Assembly (NCBI GenBank): GCA_045661245.1
Contig: JAZRFH010000036.1
Coordinates: 8,928-72,927, forward strand
Direction of reading: 5' to 3'
Length of the DNA stretch: 64,000 nucleotides
Source of the DNA: Eubacteriales bacterium
GTDB taxonomy: Bacteria > Bacillota > Clostridia > Oscillospirales > CAG-272
Position numbers and translations under genes: made by a program. Of the stretch, positions 1 through 56,884 are shown piece by piece (the stretch's first letter is position 1; each line of letters starts with the position of its first letter). Under the pieces are notes generated by a model. It saw only the letters and a program-made list of their open reading frames with translations. It ran no database searches and was not told where the DNA came from.

Positions 1-364
1 GCTTTGCGCTAAGGAAAACGCAAGAAACAACGGTATTACGAACGCGCACTTTTTTACGGGTGACGCAAAAAGCACAGAAGCTCTCCTTAAAAACGCAGAG
101 CGCGAGCTTGGCAAGAAAATAGAGCCCGACATTATTATACTTGACCCGCCGCGTGCAGGTCTTGACCCTGAGCTTATAAGCTTTGCAAGCTCGCTCTCGC
201 CCCGAAAAATCGTTTACATTTCCTGCAACCCAAAAACCCTCGCGCGCGACGTTAAGGCATTCGCAGAGCTCGGCTACACGGCAAACGAGGTTTTACCTGT
301 TGATATGTTCCCGGGGACAGGGCACGTGGAAAGTTTAGTTTGTCTGAAGAAACAGACAAACTAA
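1..364 (+). CDS. rumA: RumA/TrmA-family 23S rRNA (uracil-5-)-methyltransferase, C-terminal fragment (5' end lies outside the window)
   Basis: Frame 2 is open from nt 2 and reads ...IIILDPPRAGLDPEL...KIVYISCNPKTLARDVKAF...DMFPGTGHVESLVCLKKQTN*. The DPPRAG and YISCNP motifs are typical of m5U RNA methyltransferases. Confidence 0.85.
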   Translation, partial: LCAKENARNNGITNAHFFTGDAKSTEALLKNAERELGKKIEPDIIILDPPRAGLDPELISFASSLSPRKIVYISCNPKTLARDVKAFAELGYTANEVLPVDMFPGTGHVESLVCLKKQTN

Positions 365-365
365 A
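334..365. repeat. Perfect 13-bp inverted repeat (hairpin) covering the last rumA codons and the stop codon
   Basis: TTTAGTTTGTCTG (334-346), loop AAGAAA, CAGACAAACTAAA (353-365). No T-tract follows. Confidence 0.8.
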
Positions 366-591
366 GCGATATAAATCCTCACGGATTTGAGATATTTGCC
401 TTATGGCAAGCGATATACCTACGGCGCGATATGCCGCGAACTGCGCGGCGTGAGGATTTTATAGAGCGTACTTTCAACCACATTCGCCACAGGCGAATAT
501 ATCGCTGTTTCGCATTGCGTAACAATATCGCGCTTGCGAAGCAAGCATATCGCGCACCGAAGGTGCATATCGCTTTCGCCCGCAGGCGAAA
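366..591. repeat. Array of 7 heptamers interleaved with unrelated short palindromes: GCGATAT x3, then the reverse complement ATATCGC x4
   Basis: GCGATAT at 366, 410 and 426; ATATCGC at 499, 525, 547 and 567. Mini-hairpins: TTGCC-TTAT-GGCAA (396-409), TTCGCC-ACA-GGCGAA (483-497), GCTTGC-GAA-GCAAGC (532-546), GCACC-GAA-GGTGC (554-566), TTTCGCC-CGCA-GGCGAAA (574-591). An 11-bp stem pairs 373-383 with 449-459. Confidence 0.85.
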
Positions 592-614
592 CAACTTTAC
601 GAAAGGATAAAGTT

Positions 615-956
615 ATGAACAAGTCTATCAAAGAACTCGCCGTAGAGCTCACCATAGAAATAACCGCATTTTGTGACAACATCAAAGGCAGAGCGGTATT
701 TGTCAATCAACTTTTGCGCTCCTGCTCGTCCATAGGTGCTAACAGTTATGAAGCAAAGTACGCACAAAGCACAGCCGATTTTATAAACAAACTTGAGATT
801 GCGCTGAAAGAATGTTATGAAACAGACTATTGGCTTGAAATCCTATTCAAGGTCGGCTCGATGGATGAAAATACATACAAAGCACTTTCTAACAAATGTG
901 GCGCTATTCGCAGAAAACTCATCGCTTCTATCACGACAGCAAAAGAAAACGCATAA
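615..956 (+). CDS. Four-helix-bundle protein (23S rRNA intervening-sequence protein / Avd-like family)
   Basis: 113 aa from ATG 615, behind an AAGGA ribosome-binding site. The sequence ...ITAFCDNIKGRAVFVNQLLRSCSSIGANSYEAKYAQSTADFINKLEIALKECYETDYWLEIL... matches the characteristic pattern of TIGR02436/PF05635 proteins. Confidence 0.8.
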   Translation: MNKSIKELAVELTIEITAFCDNIKGRAVFVNQLLRSCSSIGANSYEAKYAQSTADFINKLEIALKECYETDYWLEILFKVGSMDENTYKALSNKCGAIRRKLIASITTAKENA

Positions 957-1018
957 GGACAAACGTGATTCCCCCGCAGTAAAGGGTTCGATATCGAGAA
1001 GAATTCAGGAGAAAAAAT

Positions 1019-1552
1019 ATGAGAGTAAAACCTTTGTTGATTTCGTTTTGTCTGTTGCTTGTTTTGAATTTAACCGCATGCTCAGGATATAACAACATTA
1101 TGTACAAACACCTTAGTAATGTTGAAAATTATAAAATATATACGGTTGTAGTTGAAAATATATATGTCTGCAACAAGGAAACGAGAAAACTAGAAAAATA
1201 CGATGAAACTATTCATGATGAAAGTTTTTTAAGCGCCACTGTTTATTTCGCTGTTTCGGAATTGAATGGTTTTTATGCTGGCGAGTATATACTTAGTGAT
1301 GGCACTAGAACTGAAAGTATGGTCTTGTTGGAAGTGTTAACTAAAAACAGCGAAACACTTCTTGAAAATGATTTTTACAAGGATTTCAAACCGGGTAATC
1401 TTATGGAAATTCAATGTTCGGATTTGGTCTATATGGATACAAATTTCTATTATGCTATCGGTATTAAATATGGCGAAATACAATACCTGAACAGCGAAGA
1501 TGGTTTACAAAATATTGTTGATATCATGGATAAAGACAGGAGTGTATTTTAG
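1019..1552 (+). CDS. Hypothetical lipoprotein
   Basis: 177 aa with an AGGAG ribosome-binding site 7 nt upstream. Signal peptide with lipobox LNLTAC. The gene is visibly AT-rich compared with its neighbours. Confidence 0.7.
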   Translation: MRVKPLLISFCLLLVLNLTACSGYNNIMYKHLSNVENYKIYTVVVENIYVCNKETRKLEKYDETIHDESFLSATVYFAVSELNGFYAGEYILSDGTRTESMVLLEVLTKNSETLLENDFYKDFKPGNLMEIQCSDLVYMDTNFYYAIGIKYGEIQYLNSEDGLQNIVDIMDKDRSVF

Positions 1553-1578
1553 TAAATATACCTTTTGTCGTCCCCACC

Positions 1579-1620
1579 CACGTAGAAAGTGCAGTGTGTC
1601 TTGCACGACACAATGAATAA
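1579..1620 (+). pseudogene. Relic 3' terminus of a rumA-like gene (HVESAVCLARHNE*)
   Basis: 42 nt co-linear with rumA 323-364 (HVESLVCLKKQTN*), with the same distance to the stop. 19 of the first 23 nt are identical. The frame is closed upstream by TAA at 1531 and has no start codon. Confidence 0.7.
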
Positions 1621-1626
1621 AAGAAA

Positions 1627-2415
1627 ATGAAACAAACAAAAATTGACCGTATACCGATAGAGCTGCCGGAATGGCTCAAAAAATTGACACGGGGCGCGAA
1701 TATCTTTGACTCGTCATGCTCACCCGAGGCAAGAGTGTATTATATAAAAGCTGACACGGGGTACTACTTAAAGTGTGCAAAGTGCGGCACACTTGAGCGC
1801 GAGGCAGAGATGGACGGCTTTTTTCACAGTCTTGGGCTTGGGCCCGAGGTCTGTTTTTACGACACGGGTAGTGAATTTGACCTTTTGCTGACGCGCGAGG
1901 TTATGGGCGAGGACTGCACGGCAGGTAAATATCTTGACGACCCGGGGCGTCTTGCAGCACTTATGGGGAGCATACTGCACCGGCTGCATTGTTGCGATAC
2001 TCCTGCGTGCCCGAGGCAGGACAGACTAAGCGAATACCTTGCGACGGCGGAAGAAAACTACCGTACGGGGAATTATGACAAGTCGCACTTTCCCGACAGC
2101 TTTGGCTACAAATCAGCCGAAGAGGCGTATCGGGTAACGCAAGAGGGCAAGCATATTTTAGTATCTGATACCCTCGTACACGGCGACTTTTGCTTGCCGA
2201 ATATAATGCTAAACGATTGGAATTTATCAGCCTATATTGACCTCGGTAATGCAGGTGTTGCCGATAGGCACATTGATTTATTCTGGGGTGCGTGGACGCT
2301 TGGGTTTAACCTTGGCACCGACAGATACAGAGATATATTTTTTGACTCATACGGCAGGGAATTTATTGACAAGGATAAGCTCGACGTAATTGCGGCGATA
2401 GAGGTTTTCGGTTAA
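1627..2415 (+). CDS. Aminoglycoside phosphotransferase family protein, APH(3')-like
   Basis: HGDFCLPNIML (HGDxxxxN catalytic loop) and IDLGNAGVADRHIDL motifs. The 262-aa length is typical of APH(3') enzymes. Confidence 0.8.
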   Translation: MKQTKIDRIPIELPEWLKKLTRGANIFDSSCSPEARVYYIKADTGYYLKCAKCGTLEREAEMDGFFHSLGLGPEVCFYDTGSEFDLLLTREVMGEDCTAGKYLDDPGRLAALMGSILHRLHCCDTPACPRQDRLSEYLATAEENYRTGNYDKSHFPDSFGYKSAEEAYRVTQEGKHILVSDTLVHGDFCLPNIMLNDWNLSAYIDLGNAGVADRHIDLFWGAWTLGFNLGTDRYRDIFFDSYGREFIDKDKLDVIAAIEVFG

Positions 2416-2443
2416 GAGCTTACGCACGGAAGGGGCGTTTTAA

Positions 2444-3037
2444 ATGAAAGAAAAGGTTACCCGTTTTTTTGACAGATGCGCGCCTTTTTGGGACGAGCAC
2501 ACAGTAAAGGACACGAAAATAATAAACACTATCCTTGATAACGCAGGTGTCACCGAGGGGAAACGTGTGCTTGACGTTGCAACGGGCACGGGCGTGCTTA
2601 TAGAGGACTATCTTAGCCGCGTTGTTGCATCGGTTACGGCAGTTGACATTTCACCTGAAATGATTAAGATTGCAAAATCAAAGTTTACCGACAAGAGAGT
2701 CGAATTTATTGCGTCTGACGTATTCGATATAATTGCGCCCGAGAGTTACGACTGCATAGTGGTTTACAATGCTTTGCCGCATTTTGCCGACCCCGTGTCA
2801 CTTCTTCGCCATCTTACAGGCATGCTTGCCCCAGGGGGAACACTGACGGTTGCACACGGAATGTCACGCGAGGCACTGACAAAGCACCACTCGGGCAGTG
2901 CTAAGGAAATTTCAATTGATCTCTTACACGAGGACGAGCTTGCAGAGATACTTGCGAAGGAACTGACGGTTACTGTAAAAATTTCAAATAACGAAATGTA
3001 TCAGGTAGCGGCAGTTAAGCTCATTAAAAATAAATAA
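2444..3037 (+). CDS. Class I SAM-dependent methyltransferase
   Basis: VLDVATGTG motif I; 197 aa. Confidence 0.8.
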   Translation: MKEKVTRFFDRCAPFWDEHTVKDTKIINTILDNAGVTEGKRVLDVATGTGVLIEDYLSRVVASVTAVDISPEMIKIAKSKFTDKRVEFIASDVFDIIAPESYDCIVVYNALPHFADPVSLLRHLTGMLAPGGTLTVAHGMSREALTKHHSGSAKEISIDLLHEDELAEILAKELTVTVKISNNEMYQVAAVKLIKNK

Positions 3038-3082
3038 TTAAATAATAACAATGAACGGAATAACCTTTTGAATTGGTAAATT

Positions 3083-4318
3083 ATGAAAACCTCAAGTAAA
3101 AACGCACAACCAAGACCCCGACTTTTAATTGCACTGTGTTGGCTGATATATGCCGCAAGCTACGTTGCAAAGCTTAGCTACAATGCAAACATAAGCCCGA
3201 TTGGCGACGCGTTCGGTGTCAGCTACAAGGAAGCGGGTGAAGTATCCACCTTTTTCTTCTTTGCTTACGGCATAGGTCAAGTGGTCAACGGCTTGCTATG
3301 TAGGAAATACAATCCGAAATTTGTAATATTTATTTGCCTCTTAGGCAGCGCCGGAGTAAATTTTGCGGTGCCGTTTATTACAAGCTTTGAAATAATAAAA
3401 TACGTGTGGCTCTTAAACGGCGTATTTATGTCATTTTTATGGACTCTTATTATACGCCTTTTATCCGAAACCCTGCCAAAGCGCGACATCTCGCGTGCTA
3501 TAGTTATAATGGGAACGACTGTGGCTACGGGCACGTTTGCAGTTTACGGCATAAGCTCACTTTTTGCGGCATTTGCATCATACCGCGTTGTATTTATTAT
3601 AGCGGCGTGCTTAGTTCTTATATCGGCACTTTTATGGATATTTTTATATACTCCGCTTGTCGTGCCCTTAAAGGCAGGACGGGAAAAAGAGGCGGAAACC
3701 GAAAAATTAAGTGAAAAAAAGACACCCGTGTCGTCGCTTTTGCCGCTTATCGTAACACTCTCGCTCTTTGCATCAGCAAATAATTTCGTTAAGGACGGGC
3801 TTACTGCCTGGACGCCGGATATATTAAAATCGCTTTACAATACCCCTGACTGGTTATCTATACTCTTAACCCTGCTCTTACCGATGCTTGCTATTGGCGG
3901 TGTATCGGTAGGTGTGGCATTGCAAAAGAGAACGGGCAATTTCGTTGGCACCTGCACACTATTGTTTACATTCTCAGCTCTTTTAACAGGTGCGGTTATA
4001 CTCTTACTGTCTACGTCGCTACTCCCCGTTACGGTAGGTTGCTTTGCAATTGTAAGCTGCCTTATGGCAGGCGTAAACAACGTTATAACGAGCGGTGTAC
4101 CCTTAAATCTGCGTAACAGGATAAACTCTGGCAAGCTTGCCGGGGTGCTTAACGGCTTTTGCTATCTTGGCAGTACCCTTTCTTTATATATTCTAGGTGC
4201 TGTGGCAGACGAGTTTAACTGGCAGACGGTGTTTTATACTCTACTTGCCGTTATGCTTACAGTTACTTTGGCAGGGTGCATATATCTTGCTGTACATAGG
4301 ATAAAAAACAGAGCTTAA
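3083..4318 (+). CDS. MFS transporter
   Basis: 411 aa, two blocks of about 6 hydrophobic helices separated by a charged loop (GREKEAETEKLSEKK). Confidence 0.75.
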   Translation: MKTSSKNAQPRPRLLIALCWLIYAASYVAKLSYNANISPIGDAFGVSYKEAGEVSTFFFFAYGIGQVVNGLLCRKYNPKFVIFICLLGSAGVNFAVPFITSFEIIKYVWLLNGVFMSFLWTLIIRLLSETLPKRDISRAIVIMGTTVATGTFAVYGISSLFAAFASYRVVFIIAACLVLISALLWIFLYTPLVVPLKAGREKEAETEKLSEKKTPVSSLLPLIVTLSLFASANNFVKDGLTAWTPDILKSLYNTPDWLSILLTLLLPMLAIGGVSVGVALQKRTGNFVGTCTLLFTFSALLTGAVILLLSTSLLPVTVGCFAIVSCLMAGVNNVITSGVPLNLRNRINSGKLAGVLNGFCYLGSTLSLYILGAVADEFNWQTVFYTLLAVMLTVTLAGCIYLAVHRIKNRA

Positions 4319-4358
4319 CCCCTATACGTGTTAAAAATAACAAGAAACGAGGTAGCTT

Positions 4359-5564
4359 ATGCAATCGTTAAGGTATTTATATAGAATAGGAAACGGCCCC
4401 TCGTCCTCTCACACAATGGGGCCGATAGCTGCGGCAAGGAGATTTTTATCAGAATACCCGAATGCTATAAAATATGAGGTGACCCTATACGGCTCACTTG
4501 CCAAGACGGGGCGCGGGCACATGACCGACGAGGCACTTAAGACGGTCTTTTGCGGCCGTGAGCTCAAGATATTATTTGATTATGATACGCCGACGGCAGT
4601 GCACCCTAATACCCTTGACTTTACGGCATATAACAAAGATGGCAAGAGCGAAACCGTGCGTTACTACAGCATAGGCGGCGGCGAGGTTATTATGGACGGT
4701 GAGGAGCCGTCGGTGCACAGAGAGGTTTACCCCTTAAACTCTTTTACTGAAATCTCAGAATACTGCAGAGAACGTGATATTCGTATCTGGCAGTACGTTG
4801 AGGAATGTGAGGGGCCCGAGATTTTTGACTACCTGCTTGAGGTATGGCAGGTAATGCAGGACGCGATAAAGCGCGGAACGAAGGCCGAAGGAATTTTACA
4901 CGGGGGCCTTGGAACCGAGAGAAAGGCGCGCTTTTTATCCCGCCAAAGACATATTGACGAGAATGAGGAAACCAAGACGAACCGACTTATCTGCTCATAC
5001 GCCTTTGCGGTAAGTGAGGAGAATGCCTCGGGCGGTCTTATAGCAACCGCGCCAACCTGCGGTGCGTGCGGAGTTGTACCCGCGGTTTTGAAATTTTTAA
5101 AGCCAAAGCGCAATTTCAGCGACACGGATATAGTGCACGCACTTGCCACTGCCGGAATTGTGGGAAATCTTATAAAGAAAAACGCCTCTATCAGCGGTGC
5201 TGAATGCGGCTGTCAAGCAGAGATTGGAACTGCGTGCGCTATGGCGGCGGCCGCGGCGGCGGAGCTTTACGAGCTTGACCTTGACCAGATTGAATACGCG
5301 GCAGAGATGTCTATTGAGCACCACTTAGGACTTACCTGCGACCCGATATGCGGCCTTGTGCAGATACCCTGCATTGAGAGAAACGCAATCGCCGCAATGC
5401 GCGCGCTGAATGCGGTAAATCTTGCCGACTTTCTGGCAGATACGCGCAAGATTTCTTTCGATATGATAGTTGAAACTATGTATGAAACCGGCAAGGACTT
5501 GAAGGTAATGTACCGCGAAACCGCAGAGGGCGGCCTTGCTAAGAAATACGTGAGGAAGGATTAA
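4359..5564 (+). CDS. L-serine ammonia-lyase, iron-sulfur-dependent (single chain)
   Basis: N-terminal IGNGPSSSHTMGP motif. The alpha domain has the Cys motifs PTCGACG, AECGCQAE and LTCDPICG. Confidence 0.85.
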   Translation: MQSLRYLYRIGNGPSSSHTMGPIAAARRFLSEYPNAIKYEVTLYGSLAKTGRGHMTDEALKTVFCGRELKILFDYDTPTAVHPNTLDFTAYNKDGKSETVRYYSIGGGEVIMDGEEPSVHREVYPLNSFTEISEYCRERDIRIWQYVEECEGPEIFDYLLEVWQVMQDAIKRGTKAEGILHGGLGTERKARFLSRQRHIDENEETKTNRLICSYAFAVSEENASGGLIATAPTCGACGVVPAVLKFLKPKRNFSDTDIVHALATAGIVGNLIKKNASISGAECGCQAEIGTACAMAAAAAAELYELDLDQIEYAAEMSIEHHLGLTCDPICGLVQIPCIERNAIAAMRALNAVNLADFLADTRKISFDMIVETMYETGKDLKVMYRETAEGGLAKKYVRKD

Positions 5565-5565
5565 T

Positions 5566-5991
5566 ATGGAGTTCAGTATAAAAGAGTTTTCCGAGCTTAA
5601 CACACGCGAGCTTTACGAGATAATGAGGGCAAGAGCAGATATATTCACGCTTGAGAAGGGTATGATTTGCCGCGACCTTGACGGCCTTGACTACGAGGCC
5701 CTACACTGCATACTTACAGACGGCGGTAAGCTTATTGCATATCTGCGTGCGCTTGTATATAACACGTCCATAAGGCTCGGCAGAGTTATTACCCGTACGC
5801 ACGGGCTCGGGCACGGAAGAATACTTATGGAAGAGTCGGTATCGGCACTTAAGGCTAAATACCCGAATAAAAAAATAGGTGTGCACGCACAGCACGATGC
5901 GGTTGGCTTTTACGAAAGGTGCGGCTTTACCGTCACGTCAGACGAGTTTTTTGAAGAGGGCGTGCGCCACTTTGAGATGGAGCTTAAATAA
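5566..5991 (+). CDS. GNAT family N-acetyltransferase (ElaA-like size)
   Basis: 141 aa; RTHGLGHGRILM acetyl-CoA-binding-type motif. Confidence 0.75.
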   Translation: MEFSIKEFSELNTRELYEIMRARADIFTLEKGMICRDLDGLDYEALHCILTDGGKLIAYLRALVYNTSIRLGRVITRTHGLGHGRILMEESVSALKAKYPNKKIGVHAQHDAVGFYERCGFTVTSDEFFEEGVRHFEMELK

Positions 5992-6030
5992 ACACTTACT
6001 ATTATTTTTTTAACACGGGGGTTACTTAAT

Positions 6031-6639
6031 ATGAAAAGGACCTTTGAGAGCGAGCTGCCCGAAGGCTACGCTCAGATATTCACCATTGACGCAAAGCAAA
6101 AGAAAACCGGCCTTATTTTAAATGCGGTGTCATTTTTAGTTCAGGGTATACTTTACCTTATCTGTATACCGCTCTTATATATCGGTGGGGAGCCGAATTT
6201 TGACATTACCATACCGGAGCTTATGATTTCGGCTGCGGTCCTTAGTGTATCGTTGCTTTTGTACGTAGTCCTGCACGAGCTTACTCACGGTGCGGCATAC
6301 AAGATATTAACTAAGCAAAAGCTAAGCTTTGGTCTTTCATGGTCATGCGCGTTTTGCGGAGTGCCGAATATATACGTCTACAGAGGAGCGGCGCTTGTTG
6401 CGCTTACCGCACCGCTGATACTCTTTACGCTTATACTCACACCTATTACAGTATGGCTATACTTCGTACACCCCGTCTATTACATTATGTCGCTCATTCT
6501 TTTGGGCGTGCATATCGGCGGCTGCTCGGGTGACGGGTATATGACCCTTTTACTGCTCTTTAAATTTAAGGATAAAACCCTGCTTTTGCGCGACACGGGT
6601 CCGTGCCAAAGCCTTTACATAATGAAAAGCGAGGAATAA
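6031..6639 (+). CDS. DUF3267-like membrane protein (putative zincin peptidase)
   Basis: HELTH (HExxH) motif inside a multi-helix membrane protein of 202 aa. Confidence 0.6.
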   Translation: MKRTFESELPEGYAQIFTIDAKQKKTGLILNAVSFLVQGILYLICIPLLYIGGEPNFDITIPELMISAAVLSVSLLLYVVLHELTHGAAYKILTKQKLSFGLSWSCAFCGVPNIYVYRGAALVALTAPLILFTLILTPITVWLYFVHPVYYIMSLILLGVHIGGCSGDGYMTLLLLFKFKDKTLLLRDTGPCQSLYIMKSEE

Positions 6640-6641
6640 AA

Positions 6642-7598
6642 ATGAACGAAAACAATACCCAGAAAAAGAAGCTTATGCGCGGATTTTTGTTTGACCTGTT
6701 GCGAGGAGTCGGCATAGGCGTTGCATTTATTATCCCCGGCTTTTCCGGCGGGTCGGTTGCCGCGATACTCGGAATTTACGAGAGGCTTATAGGTGCGGTT
6801 GCGGGAATATTCAAGGAGTTTAAAAAGAGCCTCTTTACCCTCTTGCCCGTAGGTATCGGAATGGGCATAGGTGCAGTGTCACTGCTCTTCCCTCTCGAAT
6901 GGGCGCTCGGCAAAATACCGCTGCCGACAGTATCGCTGTTCGTAGGTCTGACGCTTGGGTGCTTGCCCGTGCTTTACAAAGAGGTAAAGGGTAAAATAAC
7001 CTACAAAAACGTGCTTGCCTTTGTACTGCCGCTTTTGCTTGCCGTGTCAATGTGCTTTTTACCAATCGGTGAGGACGTTAATTTATACACTCTGACCTTC
7101 TTTGGACATATTCTCTTGATACTTATAGGAATTATCGGCTCGTCGGCTCTCGTTATACCCGGTATATCGGGCAGCATGCTGTTACTTATGCTCGGCTACT
7201 ACAACCCGACGGTTAGTATGATAACATCATTCTTAGGTACTCTCTTAGATGCGGTATCGGGCGAGGAATTTTTATGGCCGGACCTATATAAGCCGCTGAT
7301 TGTACTATCACTTATGGCAGTTGGTATTGCAATCGGATTTGTTGGAATCTCGGTAATTATGAAGCGTCTGTTTGCCACCTGCCGCCGCGGCACCTACTTT
7401 GCAATTCTCGGCTTTATCGTCGGCTCTTTGCCTACGGTTTACGTTTCGACGGTTAAAGAGGCGGGCTACACCTCGGGCAATTTACCGACCTCACCCTGGC
7501 ACTGGATAGGCTGTGTGGCGGCCCTTCTTCTTGGCTGTGCAATCTCTGTATCTCTCGTTATATATTCAAATAAAAAATCAAAGGCTAAATCGGAATAA
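6642..7598 (+). CDS. DUF368 domain membrane protein
   Basis: Duplicated IPGFSGGSVAAILGIYERL and IPGISGSMLLLMLGYY motifs. Start moved to ATG 6642, directly after the upstream stop. Confidence 0.75.
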   Translation: MNENNTQKKKLMRGFLFDLLRGVGIGVAFIIPGFSGGSVAAILGIYERLIGAVAGIFKEFKKSLFTLLPVGIGMGIGAVSLLFPLEWALGKIPLPTVSLFVGLTLGCLPVLYKEVKGKITYKNVLAFVLPLLLAVSMCFLPIGEDVNLYTLTFFGHILLILIGIIGSSALVIPGISGSMLLLMLGYYNPTVSMITSFLGTLLDAVSGEEFLWPDLYKPLIVLSLMAVGIAIGFVGISVIMKRLFATCRRGTYFAILGFIVGSLPTVYVSTVKEAGYTSGNLPTSPWHWIGCVAALLLGCAISVSLVIYSNKKSKAKSE

Positions 7599-7650
7599 AA
7601 ACTACCCCTTCATAATATACTTGACTAACAAAGTATTGTGGAGGGGCTTT

Positions 7651-8139
7651 ATGTTTATATATTCGATAAGGGCATCGACGCTTAAGATAATCGCGCTCGT
7701 TTGCGTGTGCCTTACCGTGCTTTTTACAATTTCCGCGCTTGACAGGGGCACGACGGTATACGCATCTGTCGGCGGCAGGACGGTAAACTACGGCGGAATT
7801 AAAACCGAAGAGGACAGAATAAAATTTATTGAAGGCTTTGGGCTTAAGGTAGCGGCAGAGCCGACAGAGGTAGAGGAATTTGCTATGCCGCGCGACCTTG
7901 ACAGAGTTTTGCTCGGATATAACGAATTACAAAAATCGCAGGGCCTTGATATTTCAAAATACACACGCAAGCGCGTGACCCACTACGCCTACGAGGTAAC
8001 GAACTACGACTGTGAGGGCAAGGTCTACGTAAACCTACTTATGTACCGCGACAGAATTATAGCCTGCGATATATCCAGCGGCGACCCCGAGGGCTTCGTT
8101 TTGCCCTTATCAAGGCTTGACGCGGAAAAATTAAAATAG
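7651..8139 (+). CDS. DUF4830-like protein with an N-terminal membrane anchor
   Basis: Start at ATG 7651 behind GGAGGGG. The ...EVEEFAMPRDLDRVLLGYNELQKSQGLDISKY... pattern is recalled from clostridial DUF4830 proteins. Confidence 0.6.
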   Translation: MFIYSIRASTLKIIALVCVCLTVLFTISALDRGTTVYASVGGRTVNYGGIKTEEDRIKFIEGFGLKVAAEPTEVEEFAMPRDLDRVLLGYNELQKSQGLDISKYTRKRVTHYAYEVTNYDCEGKVYVNLLMYRDRIIACDISSGDPEGFVLPLSRLDAEKLK

Positions 8140-8217
8140 CAGTAACACAAATCAGGGTTATTCATACTATGTAAATAGGCGGCTACGGTCGCAGAAAATC
8201 TTCTTAGGAGAACACAT

Positions 8218-8316
8218 ATGAATAACAACTGCTTCTGCCATCTTTTCGACGATAACTGCACTTGGATTATAATCCTTGCTATTATAGTTGTTCTTTGCTG
8301 CTGCTGCAATAACTGA
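8218..8316 (+). CDS. Tiny Cys-rich hydrophobic peptide, 32 aa (MNNNCFCHLFDDNCTWIIILAIIVVLCCCCNN)
   Basis: Not in the ORF track because it is under 60 aa. An AGGAG ribosome-binding site lies 7 nt upstream of ATG 8218, and an intrinsic terminator follows. Confidence 0.5.
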   Translation: MNNNCFCHLFDDNCTWIIILAIIVVLCCCCNN

Positions 8317-8330
8317 TAAGCACAAAAATG

Positions 8331-8375
8331 CCCCTGTAGTAGAATTAAGCCTCTATTACAGGGGTTTTATTATTT
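8331..8375. terminator. Bidirectional intrinsic terminator between the tiny ORF and topB
   Basis: CCCCTGTAGTAG ... CTATTACAGGGG stem, flanked by an A-run and a T-run. Confidence 0.7.
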
Positions 8376-10485
8376 ATCCAAAGTCGAATCCAACCTCGCC
8401 GTCCTTAAGGACAAGCTTAGCCTCGAAAAATTTACCCTTTTTGGAGATAAATCTGTTAAGCTTTGCAGTTTCACCCGTGGCAAGCAGCCTTCTTACCTCG
8501 GATATGGGAATATCGCGCTTGCAGATATTTATGCCCATTTTGAATTTACAGCCGTCGTTATATCCCATACAGCCGTAATTGAATTTACCTCTTACTATAT
8601 TGCGGCCGCAAACGGGACAGGCGCCGACTATCTCACCATACTTGCCCGTGTCGACTAAAGGCATCTCTGGGTTATTCGCCTTATTGTTAAAGATTGCGGC
8701 AATCTCGCCCTCTGCAAGCTTCACTGCACTGTCAATCGACATCTGCCCGTGATATACCTTTTTGAGCGCCTTGCCAAGCTCGCTCGTTTTGTATTTATCC
8801 ATCACGATACCGAGCCTTGCTATAGTTTCAATAAGGTATTCGCCGCCGTCAAGAATGGTGTAAACGTCCTTTTTAAGGTCTATATATCCGCTCTTTTTTG
8901 CGTTGTCTATAATACCCGTTCTCGTTGCCTCGGTGCCAAGCTCAAGACCCTCAAATATCGCCTTGTAATCCTCGGCGTCGTCAACCTCGCCCTGCTCCTC
9001 AAGCTCCTTGGCCTTTGCCTTATCGTCCTTGAAGGGATTTTTTAGATATTTATTTAAGGTTTCAATGGTGTAGTGCTTGGGGGGCGTAGTTTCCTTCTCT
9101 TGGGGCTTAAAGTTAACGTTTACACGCTCACCAACCTCAAGGCGCGGCAAAACCTTATCCTTTACTGTATAATCGTCGTACTTCGTCCAGCCGGGCTCTC
9201 TTATAACAGTGCCCTTAAGCGTAAACTCCTCAAAGTCACCGACCTTTATCCTTATCTCGCTCTTGTCAGCCTTACATTCCTCACTGCAGAAAACAGCGAC
9301 AAAGCGGCGGAATACGGTTGAGTAAACCTGGTTCTCCTTCTCGGAAAGCTTATCCTTCGGCGGAATTTTATAGGTGGGCGTGAGAGCCGAGTGTGACTCA
9401 ATCTTAGAGTCGTCGAAAATATACTTAGAGTCCTTGAATCTTACGGGATAGCCGAGCTTTGACACGTTTGCAATAATCGCGCGCATCTTATCCTTTTCAG
9501 CCGTTGCAAGATACTCGGAGTTTGTTCTCGGGTAGGTAAGATAACCCTCCTCGTAGAGCTTTTGAATTATCTTCAAGCTCTCAGCCATACTCATTTTATA
9601 CTTTTTACCGAGCACGTTCTGAAGAGTGGAGAGCGAATACAGCTTACCCGGCAGAATTACGTCCTCACGGCTGTTAACGTAGGTCACTACAGCGCCCGCA
9701 CCGTTGTAGGCAAGGGCGGTTTGCTTTGCCTTGTCCTCCTCGTCCTTTGTAAACCTTTCTTTACTTACAAGCTCAACCTTTTCACCGTGTGTGACAGCAG
9801 AGCTTGCGAGTGAGAAATATTTCTCGGGCACGAAGTTGCGTATTTCCATATCCCTGTCGTAAATAGCCTTAACTATGGGCACTATTACTCTGCCCACGCG
9901 CAAGAGCTTATCCGACTTAATAGTAGCATACCGTGTTAAATTAACGCCATATAACCAGTCAATGTACGTGCGTGCAAGACCCTCTGATGCGAGGTTATCG
10001 TACTCACTCTCGTCCTTCATTTCAGAGAGTGCGCGGCGCACGGTTTCGGGCGTCTGGTCGGGCAGCCAGAGTCTTAGCTGCCTTTTGCTTGCGGTAAGTG
10101 CGTTTTCAACGCAAAGCCTTACTATAATTTCACCCTCTCTGTCAGCATCACCCGCGTTTACCACGGTATCAACGTCAGAGCGGTTACAAAGGCGCTTGAT
10201 TATCTCAAACTGGCGCTTAACACCCGAGTCGGTAGCCTTCTTGTCTGCACTGCGCTTAAGCTCAAAACGGAATTTCTCGGGAAAGCAGGGTAAGTTATCA
10301 AGCGTCCACTTACCGCCCGAGGAGCTGCCGTATGCCTCAATATCCACGAGGGAAAAGAGGTGACCGAACGCCCAGGTTACTATATATTCGGAGTTTTCAA
10401 AAAAACCGTCTTTTTTATCCATCTTACCGATGCCTGCGACTATGTTGCGTGCAAGGCTCGGCTTTTCAGCAATAATAAGAACCAT
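8374..10485 (-). CDS. topB: DNA topoisomerase III
   Basis: 703 aa. Toprim N-terminus MVLIIAEKPS, EGYLTYPRT active-site Tyr region, C-terminal CPVCG...C zinc ribbon. Confidence 0.9.
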   Translation of the reverse strand: MVLIIAEKPSLARNIVAGIGKMDKKDGFFENSEYIVTWAFGHLFSLVDIEAYGSSSGGKWTLDNLPCFPEKFRFELKRSADKKATDSGVKRQFEIIKRLCNRSDVDTVVNAGDADREGEIIVRLCVENALTASKRQLRLWLPDQTPETVRRALSEMKDESEYDNLASEGLARTYIDWLYGVNLTRYATIKSDKLLRVGRVIVPIVKAIYDRDMEIRNFVPEKYFSLASSAVTHGEKVELVSKERFTKDEEDKAKQTALAYNGAGAVVTYVNSREDVILPGKLYSLSTLQNVLGKKYKMSMAESLKIIQKLYEEGYLTYPRTNSEYLATAEKDKMRAIIANVSKLGYPVRFKDSKYIFDDSKIESHSALTPTYKIPPKDKLSEKENQVYSTVFRRFVAVFCSEECKADKSEIRIKVGDFEEFTLKGTVIREPGWTKYDDYTVKDKVLPRLEVGERVNVNFKPQEKETTPPKHYTIETLNKYLKNPFKDDKAKAKELEEQGEVDDAEDYKAIFEGLELGTEATRTGIIDNAKKSGYIDLKKDVYTILDGGEYLIETIARLGIVMDKYKTSELGKALKKVYHGQMSIDSAVKLAEGEIAAIFNNKANNPEMPLVDTGKYGEIVGACPVCGRNIVRGKFNYGCMGYNDGCKFKMGINICKRDIPISEVRRLLATGETAKLNRFISKKGKFFEAKLVLKDGEVGFDFG

Positions 10486-25049: not shown

Positions 25050-25069
25050 ACTCTTGAACCGAACAGAAT

Positions 25070-25150
25070 AAATATCAGGGGTGCTCTCGGGCTGAGATAG
25101 CGTTTAGCTAAACCCTTTAACCTGATACGGATAATGCCGTCGTAGGAAGA
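25070..25150 (+). promoter_or_regulatory. TPP (THI-box) riboswitch aptamer
   Basis: GGGGTGC...CTGAGA...ACCC...AACCTGAT..GGATAATGCC...GGAAG conserved blocks appear in the correct order upstream of thiT. Confidence 0.9.
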
Positions 25151-25180
25151 TTATAAGTGGTTTTTTCCATTATATTTAAC

Positions 25181-56726: not shown

Positions 56727-56803
56727 GGCGGATTAGCTCAGTTGGCTAGAGCGTCCGGTTCATACCCGGCAGGTCGTTGGTTCAAATCCGACATCCGCTA
56801 CCA
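56727..56803 (+). tRNA. tRNA-Met (anticodon CAT, elongator-like)
   Basis: Cloverleaf folded by hand: acceptor GGCGGAT/ATCCGCT, D arm GCTC-AGTTGGCTA-GAGC, anticodon loop TTCATAC, T arm GTTGG-TTCAAAT-CCGAC, encoded CCA. tRNA-Ile2(CAT) cannot be excluded. Confidence 0.85.
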
Positions 56804-56809
56804 CACTTT

Positions 56810-56884
56810 GGCTCGTTGGTCAAGCGGTTAAGACACGGCCCTTTCACGGCTGTAACAGCGGTTCGATTCCGCTACGAGTCACCA
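56810..56884 (+). tRNA. tRNA-Glu (anticodon TTC)
   Basis: GGCTCGTTGGTCAAGCGGTTAAGACACGGCCCTTTCACGGCTG...TTCGATTCC...CGAGTCACCA. Anticodon loop CTTTCAC. Close to the Bacillus tRNA-Glu pattern. Confidence 0.9.

Follow-up and report, generated by a model that had tools for sequence, protein, structure and literature searches.

A probable promoterless gene-cassette block within the last codons of rumA in gut Clostridia

The left end of a 64-kb stretch of DNA from an Eubacteriales bacterium (contig JAZRFH010000036.1; the whole stretch is called the window below) carries a rumA gene truncated by the window's left edge, an array of heptamers and hairpins, a gene for a four-helix-bundle (4HB) protein, a lipoprotein gene, a second copy of the end of rumA, and an aph gene (Table 1). 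An earlier note on this DNA had read everything between the two rumA ends as an insertion, and the duplicated terminus, together with the DNA that it brackets, is the subject of this report. The truncated gene is of the RumA/RlmD type of m5U methyltransferases. Its C-terminal catalytic domain, including the catalytic HVE motif, is present, with PF05958 scoring 54 bits against a cut-off of 23 and aligning to the model end, and TIGR00479 aligning over model positions 331-432 of 432, where the model ends at the HVE motif; the full-length NCBIfam cut-offs are out of reach for a gene cut by the window edge. The contents that the earlier note had assigned to the insert (a heptamer/hairpin array, an Avd/IVP-like gene, and a lipoprotein gene) also hold. 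Specifically, the 4HB product scores above the cut-offs of both TIGR02436 and PF05635, and it matches PDB 2rld, an entry with five chains, at E = 1e-20. Exact-protein look-ups of the window's aph and 4HB products matched no record.

Table 1. Features at the rumA-aph locus of the window
Feature	Position	Strand	Details
rumA/RlmD-type 23S rRNA (uracil-C5) methyltransferase gene, 3' part	2..364	+	stop codon 362-364; cut by window edge
CACGT core, left junction (attL side)	323..327	+	within the His-Val codons of the catalytic HVE motif
Replacement rumA tail supplied by the insert (HVESLVCLKKQTN, then stop)	323..364	+	tail joined to a cassette right end, not to rumA, in L003, L081-L083, L152
Tail hairpin, 13-bp perfect stem	334..365	+	stem 334-346/353-365; 5' arm is the rumA terminal codons; DNA fold z = -5.8, 0/200 shuffles
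Heptamer/hairpin array	366..600	+	GCGATAT at 366, 410, 426 (GAGATAT near 390); ATATCGC at 499, 525, 547, 567; each beside a variable hairpin
4HB gene, 23S rRNA intervening sequence (IVS) protein / Avd family	615..956	+	TIGR02436 87 bits (cut-off 24); PF05635 75.5 bits (cut-off 33.8)
4HB-to-lipoprotein junction/leader	957..1018	+	L101 homology ends at 970; shortened version of conserved linker ..TTTACAGCAGT..TAACATATCGAAAGGAG
Lipoprotein open reading frame, cassette cargo	1019..1552	+	177 aa, LTAC lipobox; no Pfam or NCBIfam match
Conserved cassette right end (siteC), AAATATACCTTTTGTCGTCCCCACC	1554..1578	+	begins AAATATACCTTTTG, ends ACC; single occurrence in window
Displaced ancestral rumA terminus (HVESAVCLARHNE, then stop), right junction (attR side)	1579..1620	+	at native rumA stop position of empty sites; orthologous relic in L101
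APH(3')-like phosphotransferase gene (aph)	1627..2415	+	PF01636 83 bits; NF033068 129 bits, below its cut-off

The first copy of the rumA terminus, CACGTGGAAAGTTTAGTTTGTCTGAAGAAACAGACAAACTAA, encodes HVESLVCLKKQTN followed by a stop, and the second, CACGTAGAAAGTGCAGTGTGTCTTGCACGACACAATGAATAA, encodes HVESAVCLARHNE followed by a stop. Both correspond to the last 13 rumA codons, in frame (HVES.VCL...stop), so that the duplication and its equal length to the stop codon are confirmed. The copies agree at 19 of the first 23 nt (19/24) and at 27 of 42 overall. When both strands of the 64 kb were scanned with the 24-mer, position 1579 was the best second match and the next best reached only 15/24; likewise, the pattern HVE[ST].V.L occurs at two places only in the six-frame translation of the window, namely the two copies. 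As the earlier note had claimed, the second copy is not a gene, with an in-frame TAA at 1531, no usable start, and no open reading frame (ORF) of at least 30 aa over 1579-1620 in that frame. It ends 6 nt upstream of the aph ATG.

The insert-free relatives that an insertion calls for do exist. When the aph protein was searched against the species representatives of GTDB, 80 loci were retrieved from metagenome-assembled genomes (MAGs) of gut Clostridia, and rumA lies no more than 6 kb upstream of aph in 29 of the 80. In five of the loci compared (L005, L027, L039, L054, and L056; L numbers denote comparison loci throughout), the site is empty and the rumA stop falls 13-23 nt ahead of the aph start. 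For example, rumA of L005 ends ...DLFPGTGHVESVVCLTRK and a stop, followed by 20 nt and then the ATG of aph. Because the rumA stop stands directly before aph in these empty sites, the second copy in the window, referred to here as the relic, occupies the place of the native rumA end, and aph is the ancestral downstream neighbor of rumA.

The closest relative found is L101, an ENA metagenome scaffold whose aph is 89% identical to that of the window, and which is collinear with window 1-970 at 87.5%, 1560-3049 at 90.8%, and 4342-9000 at 94%. This scaffold also carries the replacement tail, the array, the 4HB gene, and the relic (CACGTGGAAAGTGCAGTGTGTCTTGCACGAAACAATGAGTAA, 39/42 nt), and an insertion common to both must be older than the split of the two lineages. 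Window 971-1559 and L101 3144-3668 hold unrelated ORFs, the lipoprotein gene being replaced in L101 by an unrelated 129-aa ORF. One ORF-sized unit has thus been cleanly exchanged since the two lineages split.

Immediately before the relic lies siteC, the conserved right end, with the consensus AAAATATACCTTTTGGAGTCTTGACC/CAYGT (the slash marks the junction here and below). Window 1554-1603 is found again in other loci. With a relaxed pattern, L001-L102 and the window together gave 22 distinct sites, every one on the rumA/aph strand, and a metagenome scan with ACCTTTTG-N8-ACCCAYGTNGA returned 65 stretches, of which about 50 are true sites. The earlier note had suggested looking for further copies of the ends of the insert, and the right end is thus known from about 70 places in MAGs and metagenomes, always on the rumA strand. 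Each true siteC abuts CAYGT, which opens an in-frame HVE[ST]xVCL tail that stops within about 10-16 codons, and a ribosome-binding site (RBS) and an ORF usually follow 12-60 nt past the tail stop. The tails vary synonymously (GTC, GTG, or GTT; GAA or GAG; Ser as AGT or as TCC/TCG) while the peptide is kept, indicating that they evolved under selection as a RumA C-terminus. The CACGT core is the only sequence common to all rumA ends, all cassette junctions, and the relic. An insertion that supplied a replacement 3' end for rumA, as had been proposed, is therefore upheld, but its start is to be placed at the core at 323-327 and not at 365; since the insertion begins at the shared core, codons 323-364 are part of the incoming DNA. 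The attL/attR geometry that had been recognized at the rumA 3' end is supported by the junction anatomy, the empty sites, and the conserved right end alike.

In relatives, siteC is usually preceded by a paralogous unit, siteV (..CCTTTTGGCTTTACAACCCCCGT/TTTTGGCAC..). The two span about 70 nt in all, carry T-tracts spaced in phase at roughly 10.5 or 21 nt, and end in ACC/CAYGT. The composite of siteV, siteC, and tail folds no better than its shuffles (z = -0.77), which shows siteC not to be attC-like and rules out a folded site of that kind. In two loci (L061 130-700; L082 3450-4101), small GIY-YIG nuclease ORFs with a GC-rich structured leader lie inside siteV, flanked on both sides by siteV copies of about 35 nt. 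It may be that siteV is a second insertion target with a duplication logic of its own, or else no more than an accessory arm.

The units bounded by these junctions are compact, at 0.3-2.4 kb, and contain one ORF or at most two, the RBS directly following the tail and the site directly following the ORF stop. Among the cargo sampled with Pfam are TIR-methyltransferase, DUF4268/PD-(D/E)XK-like, patatin, SF0329, DUF3267, ASCH, beta-lactamase fold, NIF3, PHP, GNAT, and ICMT proteins, and a PADLOC scan of the 4HB protein, the lipoprotein, a GIY-YIG protein, and the L101 ORF gave nothing meaningful. The lipoprotein family itself comprises 37 clusters at 49-96% identity and is found only just downstream of rumA-type genes, in several arrangements: rumA-4HB-lipoprotein (the window, L174/L175), rumA-lipoprotein (L176/L177), rumA-DUF4097-lipoprotein (L178-L180), and lipoprotein-siteV-GIY-YIG (L061). 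Similarly, a 168-aa ORF stands behind two different 4HB subfamilies (L001, L079). No promoter-like site was found on the + strand between 135 and 2312, nor any terminator after the 4HB or lipoprotein gene, which is consistent with read-through from rumA.

Units are also found in tandem. In L003, L061, L081-L083, and L152, siteC and CACGT are followed by a tail hairpin and an array (with or without a 4HB gene), such that the right end of one cassette joins the tail of another module and not the native rumA tail. A clear example is L083, which runs from a def gene through siteV-siteC/tail hairpin and array (with the 4HB gene deleted) to a WapI-like ORF, then siteV-siteC/native-like tail and a 130-aa ORF, and then siteV-siteC/tail hairpin, array, and 4HB gene. 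In L082, which is homologous but longer, the order goes on with an FAD enzyme, siteV, a GIY-YIG ORF, siteV-siteC/tail hairpin and array, and an MBL-fold gene. In L143 and L163, the arrays of units start at rumA, and the first unit of L163 consists of two genes, the first of which encodes a protein with DNA methyltransferase motifs. This tandem pattern is what is expected if units enter at the CAYGT of rumA with a tail of their own, each being displaced distally by the next.

The first part of the insert forms a recurrent leader module that was seen in all 11 of the loci compared: a tail with its hairpin, about four units of heptamer plus variable hairpin, a spacer, and about four units of variable hairpin plus reverse-complement heptamer. 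All array-type cassettes have an equivalent tail hairpin at or just after CAY/GT, in most subfamilies right after CAY, at GT. A hairpin had been claimed over each copy of the rumA terminus. The one over the first copy, with its 13-bp stem, stands; the 6-bp stem over the relic is discarded as a chance-level fold (z = -1.9; 11/200 shuffles as good). The array region folds as RNA far better than shuffles (z = -6.85), and compensatory changes occur at 10 of 29 pairs in the right halves of five orthologous arrays. The left and right heptamers also change together by subfamily, the pairs being GCGATAT with ATATCGC, TCGATAT with ATATCGA, GTGATAT with ATATCAC, ATGAATT with AATTCAT, and GTGAAGTT with AACTTCAC. 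Arrays are not exclusive to 4HB genes and also precede PHP, MBL-fold, and TIR genes; specifically, a GTGAAGTT-type tail hairpin and array stands before PHP-domain, MBL-fold, and TIR-methyltransferase genes at L040 2190-2480, L081 4101-4390, and L105 620-845.

No Rfam family matches the insert at the gathering threshold. However, Gut-1 (RF01706) aligns end to end with both array halves, at 364-437 (+) and 502-575 (-), with 29.4 and 30.6 bits. Since the gathering score is 50 bits, the window array is a relative of Gut-1 and not a scored member. A related array at L117 118-190, directly after a siteC/tail hairpin junction, reaches 52 bits. Gut-1 was described as a probable non-coding RNA found only in the human gut, with no function or context given (Weinberg et al. 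2010, PMC2864571). Both share the pattern of a conserved heptamer followed by a variable hairpin, repeated three to four times, but the window array uses GCGATAT instead of GUGAAAU, stays at 29-31 bits against the gathering score of 50, and forms an inverted pair on opposite strands between the rumA tail and the cassette gene. A motif inverted on both strands would fit a role at the DNA level somewhat better than a conventional RNA. The heptamer and hairpin units also resemble repetitive extragenic palindromes (REPs), and the hairpin sequences differ within one array; comparison with IS200/IS605 and with REPs and their RAYT transposases brought out no transposase nearby, and the cassette right end is without a hairpin. 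The central spacer of the array, ACTTTCAACCACAT (window 469-477; ACTTTCCACCACGT in relatives), is complementary to the tail start, GTGGAAAGT (326-334), and then repeats the CACRT core. In L013, this pairing is kept through G-U wobbles, and it is absent from some subfamilies. A role like that of a bridge RNA is accordingly left as improbable, as no IS110-type recombinase was found and the complementarity does not extend to all subfamilies.

The 4HB gene has 5513 homologues, and all sampled contexts place it directly downstream of rumA, in neighborhoods that are otherwise unrelated, the gene upstream being AraC, GtrA, ThiI, or CarD-like. Between the window and L013, the 4HB proteins are 90% identical, whereas rumA is 65% and aph 58% identical, a disparity that points to horizontal movement of the 4HB module. 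The product is a clear member of the family of IVS proteins and the Avd proteins of diversity-generating retroelements (DGRs). Unlike those relatives, its gene lies neither inside an rRNA intervening sequence nor beside a reverse transcriptase, but in a mobile leader module behind rumA. In L169-L172 (about 8466-11891 in L169), the order is rumA with a TRAM domain, 4HB gene, ASCH ORF, and a second, TRAM-less U5-methyltransferase paralog, and in L091 (P0107 context) the 4HB gene comes after a TRAM-less paralog of 393 aa. The dock may therefore be provided by more than one rumA-type paralog.

The insert had been said to contain no integrase, transposase, or relaxase, and this was borne out, around related loci as well. 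Pfam and NCBIfam scans of the insert found no integrase, transposase, or reverse transcriptase, and Pfam scans found no recombinase among 20 other ORFs of the window (recA, nusA, ATP synthase, tdk, and other housekeeping genes) or among the cargo ORFs of relatives. Flanks of up to 10 kb around homologues of the 4HB and lipoprotein genes likewise showed no recombinase domain. When ORFs of at least 120 aa from 56 site-bearing loci were clustered, only the rumA, 4HB/array-related, and aph families recurred in many loci. Among mobile elements, the siteC patterns and the 4HB protein had no match in IMG/VR viral contigs, the insert had none in INPHARED phages, and PLSDB gave one fragment only; no parent element with matching att sites came to light in any of the three.

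Taken as a whole, window 323-1583 is probably a promoterless gene-cassette block that was inserted by site-specific recombination at a CAYGT core within the His-Val-Glu codons, 13 codons before the rumA stop. The insert brings its own copy of the last codons (323-364), so that RumA stays full length, and the original last codons (1579-1620) have been pushed downstream to their present position ahead of aph. It belongs to a widespread family of cassettes without a recombinase, every one of which begins with a RumA-compatible tail and ends with siteC. The block in the window is composed of the leader module (replacement tail, hairpin, array, and 4HB gene) and a lipoprotein ORF cassette. Of the origins that the earlier note had left standing, an unrecognized small insertion module or one mobilized in trans gives the best fit, and a decayed integrative and conjugative element (ICE) the worst.

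How such a block might move can be sketched. Cassettes would enter at rumA and be pushed distally by later arrivals, as in an integron, and their genes would be read through from the rumA promoter. The recombinase would act in trans, from a gene at a distant place in the genome or carried by another element; such an unlinked enzyme would recognize the conserved T-tract arm plus the core and tail. The hairpin and array could be accessory structures for recombination or RNA processing, and the 4HB protein may bind the array heptamers, which co-vary with module subfamily. A wider proposal is that gut Clostridia (Oscillospiraceae and relatives) carry a new, integron-analogous capture platform, with a CAYGT dock in the HVE codons of rumA, cassettes having a RumA tail at the 5' end and a T-tract site at the 3' end, an unlinked recombinase of an as yet unknown family, and, as the commonest first cassette, the leader module with its hairpin mimicking the target, its inverted pair of Gut-1-like arrays, and its 4HB protein. 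This proposal is advanced tentatively, as one that might stand or might well fail.

Several observations weigh against these conclusions. With no recombinase found, site-specific recombination is deduced from junction anatomy alone, and nucleotide conservation on the rumA side of the core is poor. The junction between the 4HB and lipoprotein genes is of another kind (linker TTTACAGCAGT..TAACATATCGA in place of siteC/tail), and the block in the window is possibly one two-gene cassette and not two. In addition, the nearest relative, with its 89% identical aph, already has the insertion, and neither an excised circle nor a polymorphic empty/occupied pair within one species was seen. Most of the evidence also comes from MAGs and short metagenome contigs, many of them from the single assembly JAEIGA01.

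Other explanations were also weighed. An ICE, an integrative and mobilizable element (IME), or a prophage may have integrated at the rumA 3' end and decayed to att-flanked ends, with further elements then accreting at the att sites to leave remnants of the type of cis-mobilizable elements (CIMEs). The attL, attR, and tandem-junction geometry is what the accretion model predicts, and rumA is a known target of streptococcal IMEs (PMC5704250); in addition, one Phocaeicola record has erm(G)/msr(D)/mef(A) accompanied by part of rumA, the tail hairpin, and half of an array. Against this, about 70 junction-bounded units and flanks of up to 10 kb contain no integrase, relaxase, or remnant of one, the compact one- or two-ORF units with an RBS after the tail and a site after the stop are unlike the products of random decay, and siteC and the 4HB protein are unmatched in IMG/VR or INPHARED, with one fragment in PLSDB. 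The sister species, L101, moreover, differs by a clean one-ORF swap, and decay followed by accretion is judged unlikely. Somewhat less probable still is a process with no dedicated recombinase, in which the boundary of roughly 100 nt (siteV, siteC, and tail) would be a substrate for homologous recombination or gene conversion that shuffles genes behind rumA, much like the orphan C-terminal modules behind polymorphic toxin genes. The boundaries are long and similar enough to recombine, a WapI-like immunity-type ORF is among the cargo, and displaced 3' ends are typical of toxin/orphan arrays. Such a process leaves the first entry unexplained, as all that the cassette has in common with the native rumA end is CAYGT and about 20 degenerate nt. 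The junction falls exactly at ACC/CAYGT without exception, and the nucleotide sequence of the non-coding arm is conserved even between genera with only 50-60% identity in their housekeeping proteins, which argues for a protein-recognized site.

The second copy could also be a matter of chance, or what is left of a tandem rumA paralog that was deleted and had nothing to do with the DNA in between, and rumA-type paralogs do stand in tandem in some relatives (L169-L172). The match of 19/24 against a window-wide maximum of 15/24 speaks against either version, however, and the relic always starts at CAYGT, is always preceded by siteC and never by more rumA sequence, and lies at the native stop position before aph. 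The paralog origin that the earlier note had named as fatal to its reading was therefore not borne out, and both versions are rejected as very improbable. Finally, an Avd-family gene between two copies of a gene's 3' end recalls a DGR or its relic, with the rumA tail as variable repeat, the second copy as template repeat, and the 4HB protein as Avd; a hairpin follows DGR variable repeats, just as one follows the first copy here. Nevertheless, the putative template copy has A at just 4 of the 15 mismatches, the 42-nt repeat covers the invariant catalytic HVE motif, and neither the insert nor the 20 window ORFs scanned nor the surroundings of relatives showed a reverse transcriptase. The empty sites, too, account for the second copy. 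On its mismatch spectrum and the lack of a reverse transcriptase, this idea is rejected as next to impossible.

The cassette block favored here invites comparison with three known kinds of system. Like integrons and the cassette arrays without an integrase known as CALINs, it has promoterless, mostly one-ORF cassettes in a single orientation, each with a 3' recombination site, stacked behind one entry point downstream of a promoter; the arrays have no nearby integrase, and the cargo is diverse (TIR, patatin, a likely restriction-modification (R-M) pair, acetyltransferases, lipoproteins, and many unknowns). Of the defining features of integrons, uniformly oriented cassettes that lack promoters and share a single entry site are present, whereas a gene for the tyrosine recombinase IntI beside that site and attC are not. 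In contrast to attC, which folds as single-stranded DNA and has R''/L''-L'/R' boxes, siteC has no imperfect palindrome and is conserved in sequence rather than structure, and its core is CAYGT plus a variable next base instead of GTTRRRY. Entry is inside the last codons of a housekeeping gene, for which each cassette carries replacement codons, and no IntI was seen in the insert, the cargo, flanks of up to 10 kb, or recurrently among the 56 loci. To our knowledge, integrons are essentially unreported in Clostridia.

A second parallel is the staphylococcal cassette chromosome (SCC, including SCCmec), which sits in the last codons of the 23S rRNA methyltransferase gene rlmH (orfX), with the ORF preserved and direct repeats of the terminal codons at the junctions. 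SCC elements form tandem composites, and some lack recombinase genes and rely on Ccr in trans. The rumA insertion resembles SCC and pseudo-SCC elements in that it, too, lies in the last codons of a 23S rRNA methyltransferase gene, keeps the ORF, and has repeats at the junctions. It differs in its target (rumA, not rlmH), in its unit size of 0.3-2.4 kb as against 20-60 kb, and in its end sequences, and no ccr-type serine recombinase (neither CcrAB nor CcrC acting at rlmH) was found in any locus. The third comparison is with streptococcal elements. The IMEs described there insert at a site inside rumA by means of serine recombinases, disrupting the gene, and CIMEs are decay products of large elements, flanked by att sites and without integration or transfer genes, that can accrete in tandem at a gene-end att site (PMC5704250). 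The present units are likewise att-flanked DNA without recombination or transfer genes, with tandem accretion and rumA as target, but they are uniform, compact cassettes without decay remnants. By analogy, the architecture would work like an integron or CALIN and like SCC or pseudo-SCC, without the features that define them (intI, attC, ccr, and the rlmH target).

Integron-like gene capture is regarded as mainly Gram-negative and as dependent on IntI and attC. The comparable architecture in gut Firmicutes has other sites, a housekeeping-gene dock, and no visible recombinase. If confirmed, it would constitute a new route for the exchange of small accessory genes among gut Clostridia (TIR, patatin, likely R-M, GNAT, and membrane proteins) and would explain the assembly breaks behind rumA in these organisms. 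The missing recombinase would then become a manageable target to search for. If true, it would also provide the first functional context for the orphan Gut-1 RNA and for the very large family of non-DGR IVS/IVP four-helix-bundle proteins. A limited literature search turned up nothing relevant on IVP mobility, on PF05635/TIGR02436, or on Clostridia with integron-like systems, and the system may be described under another name.

Possible contact with resistance-gene traffic is seen in one trace, the Phocaeicola erm(G)/msr(D)/mef(A) record. Specifically, at 4560-4850 of L103 (OY726012.1, labelled as a Phocaeicola massiliensis plasmid), two short pieces of rumA ends are found together with a tail hairpin and a GCGATAT array of which the left half is present. 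This DNA is 84% identical to window 323-433. It lies in a mef(A)-msr(D)-erm(G) block, some 100-400 nt beyond erm(G) on its downstream side, which suggests that this resistance block once sat behind a clostridial rumA.

Elsewhere in the window, an MFS transporter gene (3083-4318, within window 3050-4341) is missing from the otherwise collinear L101, a one-gene indel with a methyltransferase gene on one side and a serine dehydratase gene on the other; shortly before it (about 3063-3070) comes a short ACCTTTTG string, possibly by chance. Farther along, a TPP riboswitch (74.5 bits) at 25067-25165 and adjacent tRNA-Met and tRNA-Glu genes at 56727-56884 are ordinary chromosomal features unrelated to the insert.

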